Sequence record: PP359696.1
Source: Escherichia phage Ge15
Reading direction: 5' to 3' (one strand)
DNA length: 64,000 nucleotides
The position numbers and the translations under genes were made by a program. This document shows, one piece after another, positions 42,084-50,042 of this stretch. Under the pieces are notes generated by a model. The model worked only from the letters and a program-made list of their open reading frames with translations, searched no databases and was not told the DNA's origin. Every line of letters begins with the position of its first letter. The first letter of the stretch is position 1.

Positions 42084-42286
42084 ATATAATTAATAAGATT
42101 TTTGGAATTCAGTACATTAAGGTTACATATAAAGTAACGTATAAAGGTCCGTATACCGATGAACATGAAGAGCCACAAGTTCAGTCTATTATATTAGAAA
42201 AGGACCCTAACTGGCCAGTTGAATTTCGTCTTCCTTGCTATGGTCATTGGGCTGATGTTGAAATTATAAGTATTGAAAATGTCTGA
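42080..42286 (+). CDS. hypothetical protein
   Basis: 68-aa ORF. Confidence 0.45.
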   Translation: MNIINKIFGIQYIKVTYKVTYKGPYTDEHEEPQVQSIILEKDPNWPVEFRLPCYGHWADVEIISIENV

Positions 42287-42737
42287 GTTAGAGATAAGAA
42301 GCAATTTTAGATGGCCATCATGTGCATTAAGTAATTTCGCCCAATGGCCTTTTGTTATGGATGGTATCCAATTTGGAGGTCTCGAAGGATTCCTCCAAGG
42401 ATGCAAGGTGAAAAATGTTGAACAACAGCGTCGTATATTTGGGTTATCCGGGCTTGCCGCCCAACAAGCTGGAAGGTCTTATGCTAGAGCTCAGGACCGT
42501 GGGACCCTCTTCTGGCTTGGAGTTCCGTTTTCAAGATACTCCCCAGCGTGGAAAGAATTATACACAAATGCATATTTTGAAGCAGCGTTCCAAAACAAGG
42601 GCTTTCGCGATGCATTACAAGCCTCGAAAGGAAAAGTTTTGAAGCACAGCATGGCTAGTGGTCTAACAAAAGATGATACAATACTAACCGAAGCTGAATT
42701 TATTGATGTGTTAAACCTATTAAGAGACTCTCTATGA
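42273..42737 (+). CDS. YbiA/NADAR (DUF1768)-like protein, 30.3-like
   Basis: motif SNFAQWPFVMDGIQFGGLEGFLQGCKV parallels YbiA FSNFAAWP..DG...SEHYFQAQK; locally higher GC. Confidence 0.6.
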   Translation: MKMSELEIRSNFRWPSCALSNFAQWPFVMDGIQFGGLEGFLQGCKVKNVEQQRRIFGLSGLAAQQAGRSYARAQDRGTLFWLGVPFSRYSPAWKELYTNAYFEAAFQNKGFRDALQASKGKVLKHSMASGLTKDDTILTEAEFIDVLNLLRDSL

Positions 42738-43597
42738 AGCCTACTATTTTGACTGATATTGATGGAGTATGTTTAAGCTGGCAATCAGGCCTTCCTTATT
42801 TTGCTCAGAAATATAATCTTCCGTTAGAACATATTTTAAAAATGATCCAAGATGAGAAATTTATTTCTCCGGGTAAACTCTTTAATTGTGATGAAGAACT
42901 TGGTGTCAAGTTAATTGAAAAATATAATCGATCAGATTTTATTCGTTATTTGTCTCCATATAAAGATGCACTGTGTGTAATTAACAAATTAAAAGAAGAT
43001 TATAATTTTGTAGCTGTTACAGCATTGGGTGATTCTATTGACGCTCTGTTGAATCGTCAATTTAATTTGAATGCTCTTTTTCCTGGTGCCTTCTCAGAAG
43101 TAATGATGTGTGGTCATGATTCTTCAAAAGAAGAGTTATTCAAAAAGGCAAAAGAGAAATATAACGTAATTTGTTATATTGACGATCTCGCTCACCATTG
43201 CGATCATGCGAGTGAAATATTAAATGTTCCTGTTTATTGGATGGCGCGAGGAGAGCGTGACAATATTCCAAAAACCGCTCAGCGAGTTTATACATGGAAT
43301 GATGTAGAAAATAAGCTTTTTTCGCCGAAGGAAAATAAAGAAAGTTTTGATAATGAAAAAGCTATAAAAGATGTAATTGAGAAGATGGTTAAAAACGATT
43401 CTTTTCGTTGGAACACTACCTGGAGAACTCCTGGATTTAATCCGTATAATCCATATTATACACATCCATATAATCCATATTATACACACCCGTATCATAT
43501 GAATCCATTCCATACGTGGAGTTATACTAAGCCTGGTGATGCAGGGTATTTTAATAGATTTACTAGTGGTGATAATATTTTCCAAGGAGCATTCTAA
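42734..43597 (+). CDS. HAD-like hydrolase with C-terminal Tyr/Pro/His-rich repeats, 30.2-like
   Basis: N-terminal ILTDIDGV (DxDG HAD motif I); C-terminal NPYNPYYTHPYNPYYTHPYHMNPFH repeats. Confidence 0.6.
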   Translation: MKPTILTDIDGVCLSWQSGLPYFAQKYNLPLEHILKMIQDEKFISPGKLFNCDEELGVKLIEKYNRSDFIRYLSPYKDALCVINKLKEDYNFVAVTALGDSIDALLNRQFNLNALFPGAFSEVMMCGHDSSKEELFKKAKEKYNVICYIDDLAHHCDHASEILNVPVYWMARGERDNIPKTAQRVYTWNDVENKLFSPKENKESFDNEKAIKDVIEKMVKNDSFRWNTTWRTPGFNPYNPYYTHPYNPYYTHPYHMNPFHTWSYTKPGDAGYFNRFTSGDNIFQGAF

Positions 43598-43644
43598 TGT
43601 TTGTCGTTCACACTATTTATGAAAATGAAGGTAATACTACACGT
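43232..43644 (+). repeat. 413-bp direct repeat, copy 1 (3' end of 30.2-like gene plus first 48 bp of 30.1-like gene)
   Basis: identical to 45617-46029 by direct comparison. Confidence 0.9.
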
Positions 43645-44017
43645 CCGTATAATCCATATTATACACATCCATATAATCCATAATTTAATCCGTATAATCC
43701 ATATTATACACATCCTATAAAAAATTAAAATTAACCACAATAAGCGAATTGATTAAAAATATTTATTGTTCATTATCCGTCAGTAATCATCCCGGGCAAA
43801 TGCCCGGGAATTATTCTAGGATTATTTTCTTTGTTAAAAAAGACAAACGGTATTAACTGATGTATTTACTATTTACCGCTCCCTGCAGGGGGGATTATCA
43901 GAATCCGCGGTTATTCATTATTTATATACATTCAATAAAAAAGTAACCTCATAAAAAATCCTGTACTCACAGGGTGATGCGGGATAACTGACGTAAGGAG
44001 TGCTGCAGGGATTTGAT
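43645..44017. other. left arm of inserted block: scrambled phage micro-repeats then unique AT-rich DNA with GC palindromes
   Basis: 43645-43680 repeats 43442-43477, 43684-43715 repeats 43436-43467; then cccgggcaaatgcccggg, ctgcagggggg, ccgcgg. Confidence 0.6.
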
Positions 44018-44108
44018 TAGACTGGCCCCCTGAATCTCCAGACAACCAATATCACTTAAATAAGTGATAGTCTTAATACTAGTTTTTAGACTAGTCATTG
44101 GAGAACAG

Positions 44109-44474
44109 ATGATTGATGTCTTAGGGCCGGAGAAACGCAGACGGCGTACCACACAGGAAAAGATCGCAATTGTTCAGCAGAGCTTTGAACCGGGGATGAC
44201 GGTCTCCCTCGTTGCCCGGCAACATGGTGTAGCAGCCAGCCAGTTATTTCTCTGGCGTAAGCAATACCAGGAAGGAAGTCTTACTGCTGTCGCCGCCGGA
44301 GAACAGGTTGTTCCTGCCTCTGAACTTGCTGCCGCCATGAAGCAGATTAAAGAACTCCAGCGCCTGCTCGGCAAGAAAACGATGGAAAATGAACTCCTCA
44401 AAGAAGCCGTTGAATATGGACGGGCAAAAAAGTGGATAGCGCACGCGCCCTTATTGCCCGGGGATGGGGAGTAA
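44109..44474 (+). CDS. insC: IS2 InsC (orfA, HTH regulator/transposase N-terminus)
   Basis: 121-aa [29 protein letters not shown]... with A6G slippery site at 44426-44432. Confidence 0.85.
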
Positions 44475-45143
44475 GCTTAGTCAGCCGTTGTCTCCGGGTG
44501 TGCCAAACGTGTTTACCGGATCATGCGCCAGAATGCGCTGTTGCTTGAGCGAAAACCTGCTGTACCGCCATCGAAACGGGCACATACAGGCAGAGTGGCC
44601 GTGAAAGAAAGCAATCAGCGATGGTGCTCTGACGGGTTCGAGTTCTGCTGTGATAACGGAGAGAGACTGCGTGTCACGTTCGCGCTGGACTGCTGTGATC
44701 GTGAGGCACTGCACTGGGCGGTCACTACCGGCGGCTTCAACAGTGAAACAGTACAGGACGTCATGCTGGGAGCGGTGGAACGCCGCTTCGGCAACGATCT
44801 TCCGTCGTCTCCAGTGGAGTGGCTGACGGATAATGGTTCATGCTACCGGGCTAATGAAACACGCCAGTTCGCCCGGATGTTGGGACTTGAACCGAAGAAC
44901 ACGGCGGTGCGGAGTCCGGAGAGTAACGGAATAGCAGAGAGCTTCGTGAAAACGATAAAGCGTGACTACATCAGTATCATGCCCAAACCAGACGGGTTAA
45001 CGGCAGCAAAGAACCTTGCAGAGGCGTTCGAGCATTATAACGAATGGCATCCGCATAGTGCGCTGGGTTATCGCTCGCCACGGGAATATCTGCGGCAGCG
45101 GGCTTGTAATGGGTTAAGTGATAACAGATGTCTGGAAATATAG
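44432..45143 (+). pseudogene. insD: IS2 insD (orfB transposase catalytic part), frame disrupted by internal deletion
   Basis: orfB reads [23 protein letters not shown] then shifts at about 44501; the downstream DDE region (44523-45143) is in another frame. Confidence 0.8.
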
Positions 45144-45367
45144 GGGCAAATCCAATAAACAATTGGAATTTACTTCCATTGATCTGTTTACTCAGTGGTT
45201 GTCACTTTTATCGAGAAAGGTTTGCAGAACGCGGGTTTTTTTATAAGGTTCCTGATGTACTGAGGGATTATTTATCAGCTATACCGCTGGAAATAAATGA
45301 AAAGGCACGATACAAACCCGGCATCGCTAACTATCACAATATCATCACATGTGGTTTTTCAACGTTG

Positions 45368-45616
45368 TTACCCTATATAAGGCACGGCACCATGACAAAT
45401 ACGGGTATTCGCGCCGATAACAACTTCACCTGCAGTTTCATCAATAATTACCTGGTCTGCAATCTGAATATTTTTCTCTTTAACATTAAGCTTCAGATAG
45501 TTTTTCAGTTCCTGTGACAGAAGGTTGGGAATAAGCGGTTGACGCTTCCACCAGTGCGGAATAGCGGGTGGGTTTGTCGCGCTGAGGTTCGCGTCCAGTA
45601 AAAAAGGCAATAAGTC
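45368..45616 (-). pseudogene. 3' fragment of a non-phage gene (C-terminal about 80 codons ending ...GANTRICHGAVPYIG)
   Basis: coding-like - strand frame ending at a stop at 45368-45370, truncated at the junction with phage repeat copy 2; higher GC than the phage. Confidence 0.5.
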
Positions 45617-46029
45617 GTTTATTGGATGGCGCGAGGAGAGCGTGACAATATTCCAAAAACCGCTCAGCGAGTTTATACATGGAATGATGTAGAAAATAAG
45701 CTTTTTTCGCCGAAGGAAAATAAAGAAAGTTTTGATAATGAAAAAGCTATAAAAGATGTAATTGAGAAGATGGTTAAAAACGATTCTTTTCGTTGGAACA
45801 CTACCTGGAGAACTCCTGGATTTAATCCGTATAATCCATATTATACACATCCATATAATCCATATTATACACACCCGTATCATATGAATCCATTCCATAC
45901 GTGGAGTTATACTAAGCCTGGTGATGCAGGGTATTTTAATAGATTTACTAGTGGTGATAATATTTTCCAAGGAGCATTCTAATGTTTGTCGTTCACACTA
46001 TTTATGAAAATGAAGGTAATACTACACGT
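45617..46029 (+). repeat. 413-bp direct repeat, copy 2
   Basis: identical to 43232-43644. Confidence 0.9.
45626..45982 (+). pseudogene. truncated duplicate of the 30.2-like gene 3' end (118 codons from internal Met)
   Basis: translation identical to the C-terminal 118 aa of the 42734-43597 product; upstream context is foreign. Confidence 0.6.
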
Positions 46030-46251
46030 GATTACGGTCACGTAAATCAATTTTTTAGATGCAATCCAGAATTCCGAGCTCAAAAAGACGAACGAATTTT
46101 TAAAAAATGTGTAGAGCAAGGTTTCATTTACGTCAAGCACTGGATGCAAGGAAATAAAGTTAGAACTACATATCATAAGTCTTTGCCTGAGCTTAATGAT
46201 GAATTGATTTATAATAGAGCTGTAAACCAAACTTTGAAGGATGAGCAATGA
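45982..46251 (+). CDS. hypothetical protein (30.1 position)
   Basis: 89-aa ORF; start overlaps the stop of the 30.2-like ORF (TAATG). Confidence 0.55.
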   Translation: MFVVHTIYENEGNTTRDYGHVNQFFRCNPEFRAQKDERIFKKCVEQGFIYVKHWMQGNKVRTTYHKSLPELNDELIYNRAVNQTLKDEQ

Positions 46252-47711
46252 TTCTTAAAATTCTGAATGAAATAGCATCTATTGGATCAACTAAACAGAA
46301 GCAAGCAATTCTTGAAAAGAATAAAGATAATGAATTGCTTAAACGGGTATATCGTCTGACTTATTCTCGTGGGTTACAGTATTATATCAAGAAATGGCCT
46401 AAACCTGGTATTGCTACCCAGAGTTTTGGAATGCTGACTATTACCGATATGCTTGACTTCATTGAATTCACGTTAGCTACTCGGAAATTGACCGGAAATG
46501 CTGCAATTGAGGAATTGACTGGATATATCACCGATGGTAAAAAGGATGATGTTGAAGTTTTGCGTCGAGTGATGATGCGAGACCTTGAATGCGGTGCTTC
46601 AGTATCTATTGCAAACAAAGTTTGGCCAGGTTTAATTCCTGAACAACCTCAAATGCTGGCAAGTTCTTATGATGAAAAGGGCATTAGTAAGAATATCAAA
46701 TTTCCAGCCTTTGCACAGTTAAAAGCAGATGGAGCCCGGTGTTTTGCTGAAGTTAGAGGCGATGAATTAGATGATGTTCGTCTTTTATCACGAGCTGGTA
46801 ATGAATATCTAGGATTAGATCTTCTTAAGGAAGAATTAATCAAAATGACTGCTGAAGCCCGCCAGATTCATCCAGAAGGTGTGTTAATTGATGGCGAATT
46901 GGTATACCATGAGCAAGTTAAAAAGGAACCAGAAGGCCTAGATTTTCTTTTTGATGCTTATCCTGAAATTAGTAAAGCTAAAGAATTCGCCGAAGTAGCG
47001 GAATCTCGTACTGCTTCTAATGGAATCGCCAATAAATCCTTAAAAGGAACCATTTCCGAAAAAGAAGCCAAATGCATGAAGTTTCAGGTCTGGGATTATG
47101 TCCCGTTGGTAGAAATATACGGTCTTCCGGCGTTTCGTTTAAAATATGATGTACGTTTTTCTAAACTAGAACAAATGACATCAGGATATGATAAAGTAAT
47201 TTTAATTGAAAACCAGGTAGTAAATAACCTAGATGAAGCTAAGGTAATTTATAAAAAATATATTGACCAAGGTCTTGAAGGTATTATTCTCAAAAATACC
47301 GATGGATTGTGGGAAAATGCTCGTTCAAAAAATCTCTATAAATTTAAAGAAGTAATTGATGTTGATTTAAAAATTGTAGGAATTTATCCTCACCGTAAAG
47401 ACCCTACTAAAGCAGGTGGATTTATTCTTGAATCAGAGTGTGGAAAAATTAAAGTAAATGCTGGTTCAGGCTTAAAAGATAAAGCCGGTGTAAAATCACA
47501 TGAACTTGACCGTACTCGCATTATGGAAAACCAAAATTATTATATTGGAAAAATTCTAGAGTGCGAATGCAACGGTTGGCTAAAATCTGATGGCCGCACT
47601 GATTACGTAAAATTATTTCTTCCAATTGCGATTCGTTTACGTGAAGATAAAACTAAAGCTAATACATTCGAGGATGTATTTGGTGATTTTCATGAGGTAA
47701 CTGGTCTATGA
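46248..47711 (+). CDS. 30: ATP-dependent DNA ligase
   Basis: 487-aa ORF near-identical to T4 DNA ligase from MILKILNEIASIGSTKQKQAIL...; adenylation lysine motif region present. Confidence 0.95.
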   Translation: MILKILNEIASIGSTKQKQAILEKNKDNELLKRVYRLTYSRGLQYYIKKWPKPGIATQSFGMLTITDMLDFIEFTLATRKLTGNAAIEELTGYITDGKKDDVEVLRRVMMRDLECGASVSIANKVWPGLIPEQPQMLASSYDEKGISKNIKFPAFAQLKADGARCFAEVRGDELDDVRLLSRAGNEYLGLDLLKEELIKMTAEARQIHPEGVLIDGELVYHEQVKKEPEGLDFLFDAYPEISKAKEFAEVAESRTASNGIANKSLKGTISEKEAKCMKFQVWDYVPLVEIYGLPAFRLKYDVRFSKLEQMTSGYDKVILIENQVVNNLDEAKVIYKKYIDQGLEGIILKNTDGLWENARSKNLYKFKEVIDVDLKIVGIYPHRKDPTKAGGFILESECGKIKVNAGSGLKDKAGVKSHELDRTRIMENQNYYIGKILECECNGWLKSDGRTDYVKLFLPIAIRLREDKTKANTFEDVFGDFHEVTGL

Positions 47712-47945: not shown

Positions 47946-50042
47946 ATGATGGAACTCATTACAGAATTATTTGACGAAGATACTACTCTTCCGATTACAA
48001 ACTTAAATCCAAAGAAGAAAATACCACAAATTTTTTCAGTTCATGTTGATGACGCAATTGAACAACCAGGCTTTCGTTTATGTACCTATACATCTGGAGG
48101 TGATACTAATCGCGATTTAAAGATGGGCGATAAAATGATGCATATTGTTCCTTTTACATTAACTGCTAAAGGTTCAATTGCTAAATTAAAAGGTCTCGGT
48201 CCAAGCCCAATTAATTACATCAATTCAGTTTTTACTGTTGCGATGCAGACGATGCGTCAGTATAAAATTGATGCCTGTATGCTTCGTATTCTTAAGTCTA
48301 AAACTGCTGGTCAAGCTCGTCAAATTCAACTTATTGCTGATAGACTTATCCGCAGTCGTTCAGGTGGCAGATACGTCCTTCTTAAGGAACTCTGGGATTA
48401 CGATAAAAAGTATGCATATATTCTTATACATCGCAAAAATGTATCACTAGAAGACATTCCAGGAGTTCCAGAAATTAGCACCGAGCTCTTTACTAAAGTT
48501 GAATCAAAGGTTGGTGATGTTTATATCAATAAAGATACTGGAGCTCAAGTAACTAAAAATGAGGCAATTGCTGCATCTATTGCGCAAGAAAACGATAAAC
48601 GTTCTGACCAAGCTGTAATCGTTAAAGTTAAAATTTCCCGTAGAGCAATTGCACAAAGTCAATCATTAGAATCTTCTAGATTTGAAAGTGAATTATTCCA
48701 AAAGTATGAATCTACCGCAGCTAATTTCAATAAACCTGCTACGGCTCCTTTAATTCCCGAAGCAGAAGAAATGAAGCTTGGAATTAATTCATTAGCTTCT
48801 AAAACTAAAGCAGCAAAAATTATTGCTGAAGGAACTGCAGATGAACTTCATTATGACTATAAATTCTTTTCAAAAAGTGAGGTTAATGAAGTTTCTGAAA
48901 AAATTAAAGATGTAATTCTTAATGCGATTAAAAATGAACCAACTACTTCAATAAAATGTTTAGAGAAATACGCAGCAGCTGTTAATCAATTATTTGAAGA
49001 ATATAAAGATAATTGGCTTGATAAACATAATAAAACCCGTAAAGGACAGCCAGATGAAGTCTGGGAAGAAATGACTAAAAATTCCTGGAACGCAGCAAAA
49101 ACTAAATTCCTCAAAAGAATGATTTACAGCTTTTCTGGAATTGGTGCAGGTCCAATGATTGATATTACTATTGCCCGTGATGGTTCTAAATATACTCCAT
49201 CACAAAAGCGTGGCATTAGAGAGTATTGCGGTTCAGGATATACTGACATCAATAATCTTCTTTTAGGACGCTACAATCCAGAACGATATGATGTAATGAG
49301 TGAAAAAGAAATTGAATCTGCTATAAATAACTTAGATTCAGCTTTTGAAAATGGTGACCGTATACCAGAAGGCATTACAGTTTATCGTGCTCAAAGCATG
49401 ACTGCTCCTATATACGAAGCACTAGTTAAAAATAAAGTGTTCTATTTCAGAAATTTTGTATCTACTTCTTTAACTCCTATCATTTTTGGACGTTTTGGAA
49501 TTACGCATACTGGTATTGGTCTTTTAGAACCAGAAGCTCGTAATGAATTGACAGTTGATAAAAATGAAGAAGGAATAACTATTAATCCAAGCGAAATAAG
49601 AGCGTATAAAGAAAATCCTGAATACGTTAAAGTTCAAATAGGATGGGCAATTGATGGAGCTCATAAAGTTAATGTTGTATATCCAGGAAGTCTCGGAATA
49701 GCAACAGAAGCTGAAGTTATTCTACCACGAGGATTGATGGTCAAAGTTAATAAAATAACTGATGCTTCTAATAATGACGGAACAACATCTAATAATACAA
49801 AACTCATTCAAGCTGAAGTTATGACTACGGAAGAACTCACCGAATCAGTCATTTATGACGGTGACCGTCTAATGGAAACTGGTGAAGTAGTTGCAATGAC
49901 AGGTGATATTGAAATAGAAGACAGAGTTGACTTTGCATCATTTGTTTCATCAAATGTTAAACAAAAAGTAGAATCATCTCTTGGAATTATTGCGTCTTGC
50001 ATAGATATTACAAACATGCCTTACAAGTTCGTTCAAGGATAA
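47946..50042 (+). CDS. alt: Alt-family ADP-ribosyltransferase (capsid-packaged, injected)
   Basis: 698-aa ORF; N-terminal MELITELFDE; position between ligase and baseplate genes as T4 alt. Confidence 0.75.
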   Translation: MMELITELFDEDTTLPITNLNPKKKIPQIFSVHVDDAIEQPGFRLCTYTSGGDTNRDLKMGDKMMHIVPFTLTAKGSIAKLKGLGPSPINYINSVFTVAMQTMRQYKIDACMLRILKSKTAGQARQIQLIADRLIRSRSGGRYVLLKELWDYDKKYAYILIHRKNVSLEDIPGVPEISTELFTKVESKVGDVYINKDTGAQVTKNEAIAASIAQENDKRSDQAVIVKVKISRRAIAQSQSLESSRFESELFQKYESTAANFNKPATAPLIPEAEEMKLGINSLASKTKAAKIIAEGTADELHYDYKFFSKSEVNEVSEKIKDVILNAIKNEPTTSIKCLEKYAAAVNQLFEEYKDNWLDKHNKTRKGQPDEVWEEMTKNSWNAAKTKFLKRMIYSFSGIGAGPMIDITIARDGSKYTPSQKRGIREYCGSGYTDINNLLLGRYNPERYDVMSEKEIESAINNLDSAFENGDRIPEGITVYRAQSMTAPIYEALVKNKVFYFRNFVSTSLTPIIFGRFGITHTGIGLLEPEARNELTVDKNEEGITINPSEIRAYKENPEYVKVQIGWAIDGAHKVNVVYPGSLGIATEAEVILPRGLMVKVNKITDASNNDGTTSNNTKLIQAEVMTTEELTESVIYDGDRLMETGEVVAMTGDIEIEDRVDFASFVSSNVKQKVESSLGIIASCIDITNMPYKFVQG

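Follow-up and report, generated by a model that had tools for sequence, protein, structure and literature searches.

Two joined fragments of the Escherichia coli K-12 chromosome beside an internally deleted IS2 element in a T4-like phage genome

Genes and repeats around the insert

The window, by which we mean the whole 64,000-nucleotide stretch of DNA that was analysed, belongs to a T4-like phage (Tequatrovirus) that is not T4 itself. The best phage records are 95–97% identical to it over 13.6 kb, and its DNA ligase presumably differs from T4 ligase at several residues. Genes 30.3, 30.2, 30.1 and 30 were named by synteny with T4 (NC_000866). The phage features of the region are the following.

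42273–42737, plus strand: gene 30.3
42734–43597, plus strand: gene 30.2, 287 aa
43232–43644, plus strand: phage direct repeat, copy 1, 413 bp, identical to 45617–46029
45617–46029, plus strand: phage direct repeat, copy 2, comprising a truncated 30.2 remnant and then the start of the complete 30.1
45982–46251, plus strand: gene 30.1, complete
46248–47711, plus strand: ligase gene 30, followed by alt

An insert sits between genes 30.2 and 30.1, where the two copies of a 413-bp tandem duplication meet. Copy 1 of the repeat spans the 3' part of 30.2 from codon 167 through the stop codon and continues into 30.1 as far as codon 16. After the duplication, 30.2, 30.1 and the ligase gene are still complete and have their native upstream sequence, which explains the viability of the phage.

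Both phage breakpoints (43232 and 43644) fall on codon boundaries. The joint has also created a 28-codon open reading frame (43597–43683), in which the first 16 codons of 30.1 are fused in frame to PYNPYYTHPYNP and a stop codon, PYNPYYTHPYNP being copied from the 30.2 repeat. The C-terminus of gp30.2 is encoded by tandem 24-nt units that specify PYNPYYTH (43430–43510, with a copy at 45815–45895). This repeat is length-polymorphic: gp30.2 has 279 or 287 residues in relatives with an identical ligase and 278 residues in T4. Further downstream (47946–50042) the first alt frame in the window encodes 698 aa; of such alt-like ADP-ribosyltransferase genes the identical-ligase relatives carry either two in tandem (697 and 685 aa) or one (686 aa). 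Gene 30.3' of T4 was considered as a sign of a native duplication and was rejected because it is an internal alternative frame.

Two pieces of K-12 chromosome at 45155–45616

The segment between the right end of the IS2 element (45154) and the first base of repeat copy 2 (45617) consists of two juxtaposed pieces of chromosome of the E. coli K-12 lineage and is not the end of one gene. All bases of the insert were placed by BLAST against 5,426 complete E. coli genomes and by local alignment to the MG1655 loci. In a megablast search of these genomes the segment splits in two, and no single place in any of them accounts for more than half of it. The joint between the pieces is at 45384/45385, base 45384 being an A that is common to both sources. 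The features of the segment are given below.

45155–45384, plus strand: fragment of the ygeO pseudogene (ETT2 island, OrgA/MxiK family), 229/230 identity
45385–45616, minus strand: yaiX codons 2–78 and two bases of codon 79, 100% identity to K-12 382,638–382,869 (NC_000913.3)
45486–45616, minus strand: 3' end of yaiP (glycosyltransferase), the last 42 complete codons and the stop codon at 45486–45488
45368–45384, minus strand: chance tail of the open frame in antisense ygeO DNA, i.e. the third base of a V codon, P-Y-I-G and a stop codon

A preliminary description of this DNA, made from the sequence alone, had placed the right end of IS2 immediately before the segment and the cut by phage repeat copy 2 immediately after it, and had taken the DNA in between for non-phage DNA, chromosomal or plasmid. 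This agrees with the alignments, which show bacterial chromosomal DNA, and a search of 50,697 phage records with 45155–45616, even in a sensitive mode suited to distant matches, returned no match. It had also reported a minus-strand open frame that ends ...HWWKRQPLIPNLLSQELKNYLKLNVKEKNIQIADQVIIDETAGEVVIGANTRICHGAVPYIG, with a stop codon at 45368–45370, and both the frame and the stop codon are real. However, the proposal that this is a gene's 3' end does not hold: the frame consists of yaiX codons 2–78, i.e. the N-terminal part, with the stop codon situated in ygeO-derived DNA. Likewise, the supposedly non-coding stretch up to IS2 is the ygeO pseudogene on the plus strand (45155–45384), and what had been regarded as one fragment is two unrelated ones. 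The last five codons of the frame (V-P-Y-I-G) and its stop lie across or beyond the 45384/45385 joint. Since the open frame is yaiX running into antisense ygeO DNA, the stop at 45368–45370 is fortuitous. Only yaiP ends natively in the segment, and it does so in a frame different from the one described earlier.

Two further claims hold for one half of the segment each. The idea that the DNA flanked IS2 in the donor is correct for 45155–45384, which reproduces the K-12 IS2H-ygeO joint, but not for 45385–45616, the source of which begins 46 nt beyond IS2A. A GC content above that of the phage (0.357) is found in the distal half, 45385–45616 (0.453), but hardly in 45155–45384 (0.374), for which the claim fails. 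Taken as a whole, the segment has a GC content of 0.413, which places it among the 3.5% of equally sized phage windows with the highest values; the sole strong GC anomaly within the 64 kb is at 44–45 kb (GC 0.53). The BLASTN comparison with E. coli genomes that had been suggested for identifying the donor locus gives ygeO beside IS2H and yaiX/yaiP near IS2A.

The ygeO piece

This piece corresponds to K-12 positions 2,996,360 down to 2,996,131, or +1 to +230 from IS2H. In MG1655, ygeO (b2859, in the degenerate ETT2 island) abuts the insD end of IS2H, and in the phage the piece joins the IS2 right end without a break, exactly as at IS2H in K-12. The E. coli match for 45155–45384 is annotated as a 'type III secretion apparatus protein OrgA/MxiK' pseudogene. 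The plus-strand translation of the piece reads INNWNLLPL...LLPYIR, and the plus-strand open frame matches the Pfam family OrgA_MxiK (PF09482) with E = 1.4e-8, over profile positions 60–130 of 181 only. It falls short of a full-length OrgA/MxiK domain, and in K-12 itself IS2 has already truncated ygeO, which carries a pseudogene annotation there.

In both the K-12 and the phage version of the IS2H-ygeO joint, the right end of IS2 passes straight into these 230 nt. The phage version differs in being cut after these 230 nt, in carrying one private SNP (45262, a G where K-12 and all top E. coli matches have an A), and in having an IS2 with a 193-bp deletion and the left flank of another IS2 copy.

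The K-12 IS2H itself lies at ygeO without a 5-bp target duplication (left ...AAGTT, right ATAAA...), unlike IS2A, IS2I and IS2K, which suggests that IS2 long ago mediated a rearrangement or a deletion in the ETT2 island.

The yaiX/yaiP piece

If the base shared at the joint is counted, the nucleotide identity of this piece to K-12 is 233/233, and its translation equals YaiX residues 2–78. On the minus strand it reads DLLPFLLDANLSATNPPAIPHWWKRQ...TRICHGA and continues into the hybrid V codon. The yaiX ATG is cut off at 45616/45617 and the yaiX sequence ends at codon 79; native YaiX goes on IQGPVVIG... for about 150 more codons past the fragment. Intact YaiX (strain E2865) is a 230-aa hexapeptide-repeat acyltransferase, which continues ...CHGAVIQGPVVIG... 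and matches Hexapep (PF00132) at 5.4e-18. A Pfam search with the 82-aa minus-strand frame that contains the yaiX fragment matched no family, and the piece holds neither a complete yaiX frame with its start codon nor the left-handed beta-helix (Hexapep) domain. The 3' end of yaiP overlaps yaiX in another frame, as at the native K-12 locus.

In K-12 the piece starts 46 nt beyond the right end of IS2A (+47 to +279). The phage and the K-12 yaiX::IS2A/yaiP locus (b4579, b0363) agree in sequence, in the overlap of yaiP with yaiX and in the orientation relative to IS2. However, the phage lacks the 46-nt IS2A spacer, the yaiX ATG and everything past codon 79, and whereas in K-12 the piece adjoins IS2A across these 46 nt, in the phage it is joined to ygeO DNA.

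No complete gene or domain is present in either of the two K-12 pieces. In an annotation, the segment should appear as ygeO' and 'yaiX with yaiP', fragments of E. coli K-12 genes and pseudogenes, and not as a gene.

The insert as a whole

The segment is the right arm of a 1,972-bp patchwork between the 413-bp repeats, every base of which was assigned. Its other parts are the following.

43645–43682, plus strand: phage patch, copy of 43442–43479, exact local match
43683–43715, plus strand: phage patch, copy of 43435–43467, exact local match
43716–43780, plus strand: K-12 yqiG fragment, NC_000913.3 3,186,028–3,186,092, 65/65 identity
43781–44017, plus strand: K-12 intB flank, 4,497,935–4,498,171, from the last 6 nt of intB onward, 237/237 identity
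44018–45154, plus strand: IS2 with 193 bp deleted internally, aligned to four K-12 IS2 copies in two collinear blocks of 100% identity
44018–44501, plus strand: IS2 nt 1–484, first retained block
44502–45154, plus strand: IS2 nt 678–1331, second retained block, continuing unbroken into ygeO

Both phage patches were copied from the phage's own PYNPYYTH-coding repeat. The yqiG piece begins directly after the yqiG ATG and ends 3 nt before the left end of IS2I, and the intB-flank piece ends 9 nt (GGTCCCTTG) before the left end of IS2K. According to the MG1655 annotation, IS2A lies in yaiX, IS2I in yqiG, IS2H at ygeO and IS2K after intB.

The phage-borne IS2 retains both terminal repeats but lacks nt 485–677, the deletion joint at 44501/44502 having a microhomology of 1 nt. 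As the deletion follows the orfA stop codon, it shifts the frame of orfB; the transposase is therefore broken, whereas orfA (44109–44474) is intact. The retained IS2 sequence is common to at least six K-12 copies at 100% identity. SNPs in IS2 were also considered as a means to tell the source copy of each half of the element and turned out to be uninformative, because four K-12 copies are 100% identical over the retained parts.

At 44017/44018 the intB flank, having lost GGTCCCTTG, meets IS2 precisely at its nt 1. These nine nucleotides include the CCTTG target duplication of IS2K and are present in all 348 genomes that have the joint. Also of note is a GC-rich hairpin (TCCCGGGCAAATGCCCGGGA, 43790–43809) with a weak T-run just past the intB stop codon, which is now oriented with phage transcription and precedes 30.1 and the ligase gene. 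Expression of the ligase may be preserved by the 365 bp of native upstream sequence contained in the duplication.

Occurrence in phages, E. coli and other sequence collections

In eight phage or metagenome loci that encode an identical ligase, 30.2 is followed directly by 30.1 without an insert, and the two genes are likewise adjacent in T4. T4-like matches to the wider region cover just 516 bp across the same site in their own genomes. With no phage match to the segment and with 30.2-30.1 uninterrupted in relatives, the segment did not prove to be a conserved T4-like gene in homologous position, the finding that had been named as speaking against a non-phage origin. These comparisons also bear on the account by which IS2, present here with both of its terminal repeats, simply transposed into the phage and its flanks are diverged phage DNA. 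Both flanks are 99.6–100% identical to the K-12 chromosome, there is no 5-bp target duplication, and it is the phage sequence that is duplicated, by 413 bp. This account is already refuted by the alignments and can be given practically no credence.

In the E. coli genomes, the IS2H-ygeO joint is present in 376 of 5,426, the matches listed for it all being K-12 laboratory strains, and each of the four chromosomal IS2-flank joints is found in only 348–376 of them. The carriers among the matches listed are all laboratory strains of K-12 and include MG1655, C600, J53, DH5alpha, ER1709 and HST04. As the IS2-flank joints are confined to K-12 strains among the matches listed, the donor was a host of the K-12 lineage.

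The joints that set the phage apart behave differently. The ygeO-yaiX joint, the 9-nt-deleted intB-IS2 joint and the 193-bp-deleted IS2 occur in none of the 5,426 complete E. coli genomes, and the phage versions of the joints are absent from PLSDB plasmids, IMG/VR, JGI metagenome contigs and GTDB representative genomes. Scans of IMG/VR, JGI metagenomes and GTDB genomes for the exact patterns of the ygeO-yaiX, yaiX-phage and IS2 deletion joints gave zero hits. A query with the truncated InsD protein returned unrelated disrupted IS2 copies in E. coli genomes only. A plasmid or F-prime source was considered and rejected, since PLSDB plasmids match IS2 alone. A literature search on IS2 in T4-like, T-even, Tequatrovirus or Tevenvirinae phages brought up no description of a phage of this kind. 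As E. coli sequence the pieces are ordinary and already known, and it is their arrangement that is rare: an IS2-anchored patchwork in a virulent T-even genome was met nowhere else in the data searched.

The same searches bear on the possibility that a private rearrangement driven by IS2 had already formed the mosaic in the chromosome of the particular host culture and that the contiguous 1.9-kb piece was captured in a single illegitimate event. Such a history needs just two phage-host joints, K-12 strains that bear IS2 do rearrange at IS copies, and the lack of a target-site duplication at IS2H in K-12 is a sign of a past rearrangement. However, the joints peculiar to the phage are missing from the complete E. 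coli genomes and from the plasmid, GTDB and JGI collections, joints of left flank to left flank and of right flank to right flank are not products of ordinary IS-IS recombination or transposition, and the same patchwork contains phage-derived patches. We regard a pre-formed mosaic as improbable.

Anchoring at IS2 ends and properties of the joints

All four host pieces have one end 0, 3, 9 or 46 nt from a K-12 IS2 terminus, and each lies on the matching side of the phage IS2 in the matching orientation. With approximately seven IS2 copies in 4.64 Mb, the chance of one random fragment being so placed is, by a rough calculation, about 3.5e-5, and for the three pieces that are not contiguous with IS2 it is, again as a rough estimate, about 4e-14. 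The host pieces are thus tied to IS2 ends far beyond chance, which argues that IS2 homology organised the capture. The order of the flanks is nested, with the contiguous ygeO piece inside and the trimmed yaiX piece outside, and likewise with intB inside and yqiG outside.

The eight joints have microhomologies of 1, 0, 0, 0, 0, 1, 1 and 0 nt. The mean of 0.38 nt compares with a chance expectation of about 0.67 nt. Such values favour homology-independent joining over microhomology-primed switching; blunt ligation and a topoisomerase-type exchange are candidate modes.

The structure of the joints also speaks to the concern that the insert is an artefact of assembly or library construction, in which K-12 host reads were threaded through an IS2 node or chimeric molecules entered the contig. 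Hybrid IS flanks are a classic repeat-collapse error, and no second independent occurrence of any joint was found in IMG/VR, JGI metagenomes or GTDB. Nevertheless, eight joints with an overlap of 0–1 nt cannot come from k-mer graph ambiguity, the perfect 413-bp duplication keeps 30.2, 30.1 and the ligase gene intact, as in a viable recombinant, and the phage patches, which are short and templated, and the few nucleotides deleted at the ends of IS2 resemble biology and not software. An artefact is in our opinion an unlikely explanation.

Only one SNP is present across 1,901 host-derived bases, and the 413-bp repeats are identical, which is consistent with a very recent capture. In a highly recombinogenic phage, identical 413-bp repeats are expected to permit frequent loss of the DNA between them. 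The insert should hence be recent, clonally fixed or tolerated.

Two distal ends have a property in common. The yqiG piece starts exactly after an ATG (43716), and the yaiX piece ends exactly after the ATG annotated in K-12 (45616), although PGAP sets the yaiX start elsewhere. The chance of either is about 1e-3, and the two could be a coincidence or reflect a further specificity.

Function of the segment

Both source genes, ygeO and yaiX, are already pseudogenes in K-12. The yaiX frame in the phage is antisense to phage transcription, has no start codon and keeps just the first turns of the beta-helix. Promoter-like and terminator-like sites in a scan of 43500–46300 are no more numerous than in shuffled sequence, and as their counts are at the shuffled background, no expression signal can be claimed. 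Judging from these truncations, the segment appears to be passenger DNA without a function.

We also considered whether the insert is a functional acquisition (a 'moron'), with either the fusion frame at 45128–45517 (plus strand, 129 aa) or the yaiX-derived minus-strand frame being useful to the phage. The plus-strand frame runs in the direction of early phage transcription and retains a portion of the OrgA_MxiK domain, and the insert persists even though the 413-bp repeats should permit its loss. What remains of that domain is, however, positions 60–130 of 181 from a gene that had already decayed in K-12, the yaiX frame lacks its start codon, most of the beta-helix and any Pfam match and runs against phage transcription, and the insert is not enriched in promoter-like or terminator-like sites. 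A useful product of either frame is very unlikely.

Possible origin of the insert

The insert is probably inert passenger DNA that was gained on a K-12 host by IS2-anchored recombination combined with homology-independent joining. According to this reconstruction, which is drawn from the arrangement of the pieces, a phage genome carrying IS2 and growing on a K-12 host would pair with the chromosomal copies IS2I, IS2K, IS2H and IS2A. Exchange or copying would run out of IS2 into the flank of each copy, and the ends of the flanks would be closed by homology-independent joining with an overlap of 0–1 nt. Left flanks would thereby accumulate to the left of IS2 and right flanks to its right, and each would lose a few nucleotides from the end nearest to IS2. 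In a serial version spread over several infections, IS2 would act as the homologous anchor while the other end joins illegitimately nearby; in a single-burst version, branched IS2-IS2 intermediates would be cut near the homology boundary. The nested order of the flanks fits both serial events and a single burst. The 193-bp deletion would then have inactivated the transposase, leaving an immobile relic.

The insertion/substitution system of T4, in which single-crossover integration of a plasmid gives a duplicated target, is a close parallel for the overall layout. T4-type duplication joints share with the present case an A-B-insert-B-C arrangement with identical B copies and homology-independent joints. 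The insert here is, however, a patchwork of host chromosome and IS without a plasmid, and any enzyme named for its joints is a candidate. The layout could have arisen by unequal illegitimate exchange with filler DNA or by integration, through a single crossover, of a circle of 2,385 bp that included 413 bp of phage DNA; both are possible, and the layout does not tell them apart. Templated 'filler DNA' occurs at double-strand-break repair junctions. As in such filler, short segments (33, 38 and 65 nt) copied from nearby or ectopic templates are strung together at one joint; unlike in generic filler, every one of the larger pieces of the insert is linked to an end of the same repeated element.

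In its serial version the proposed process resembles homology-facilitated illegitimate recombination, which uses one homologous anchor and one illegitimate joint (PMC3240628). In both cases foreign flanks lie beside a shared homologous segment, here IS2, with the joint near the anchor, and older flanks are trimmed at the anchor-proximal end. The adjacent homologous anchor is thus present in the phage, but in the classical process the illegitimate joint falls on a microhomology of a few nucleotides, whereas the phage joints have essentially none (0–1 nt at all eight). Furthermore, it has been described for transformation or conjugation into bacterial chromosomes and not for a virulent phage, and for the phage insert we infer the number and order of events. 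A possible agent of joining without homology is indicated by T4 topoisomerase-mediated illegitimate recombination in vitro (Ikeda 1986, as cited in PMC11461880).

IS2 transposase nicks the IRR terminus and host DNA 1–2 nt outside IRL (PMC3299598). We speculate that such nicking, while IS2 was still intact, could have focused breaks at the IS ends. The intB flank, which meets IS2 exactly at nt 1 with 9 nt lost, is unpredicted by simple flank stacking and hints at transposase chemistry or an extra event. The two distal ends that lie exactly after an ATG, in yqiG and yaiX, count against the proposed model and are explained by no version of it; they might point to a further specificity of the capture.

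Significance

T-even phages destroy the DNA of their host, and carriage of host DNA is not expected in them. An IS element with four scraps of host DNA in a T4-like genome is therefore a natural record, and a rare one, of a virulent phage recombining illegitimately with its host. The insert also marks this phage as one that was propagated on a K-12 strain. The scraps all derive from the neighbourhood of different IS2 copies and were joined without microhomology, a pattern which suggests that shared mobile elements can guide the place of entry of host DNA into the genomes of lytic phages.

We tentatively consider a broader possibility, which we think somewhat doubtful at present. An IS2 in a virulent T-even phage may act as portable homology that serially samples the host DNA beside every IS copy: in each K-12 host it would pair with the chromosomal copies of IS2, breaks at the IS ends, perhaps focused there by transposase nicking, would be repaired by copying or joining host flanks, and the deletion in the transposase would have frozen the record. 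If true, this would constitute an IS-anchored route for the capture of host genes by lytic phages.
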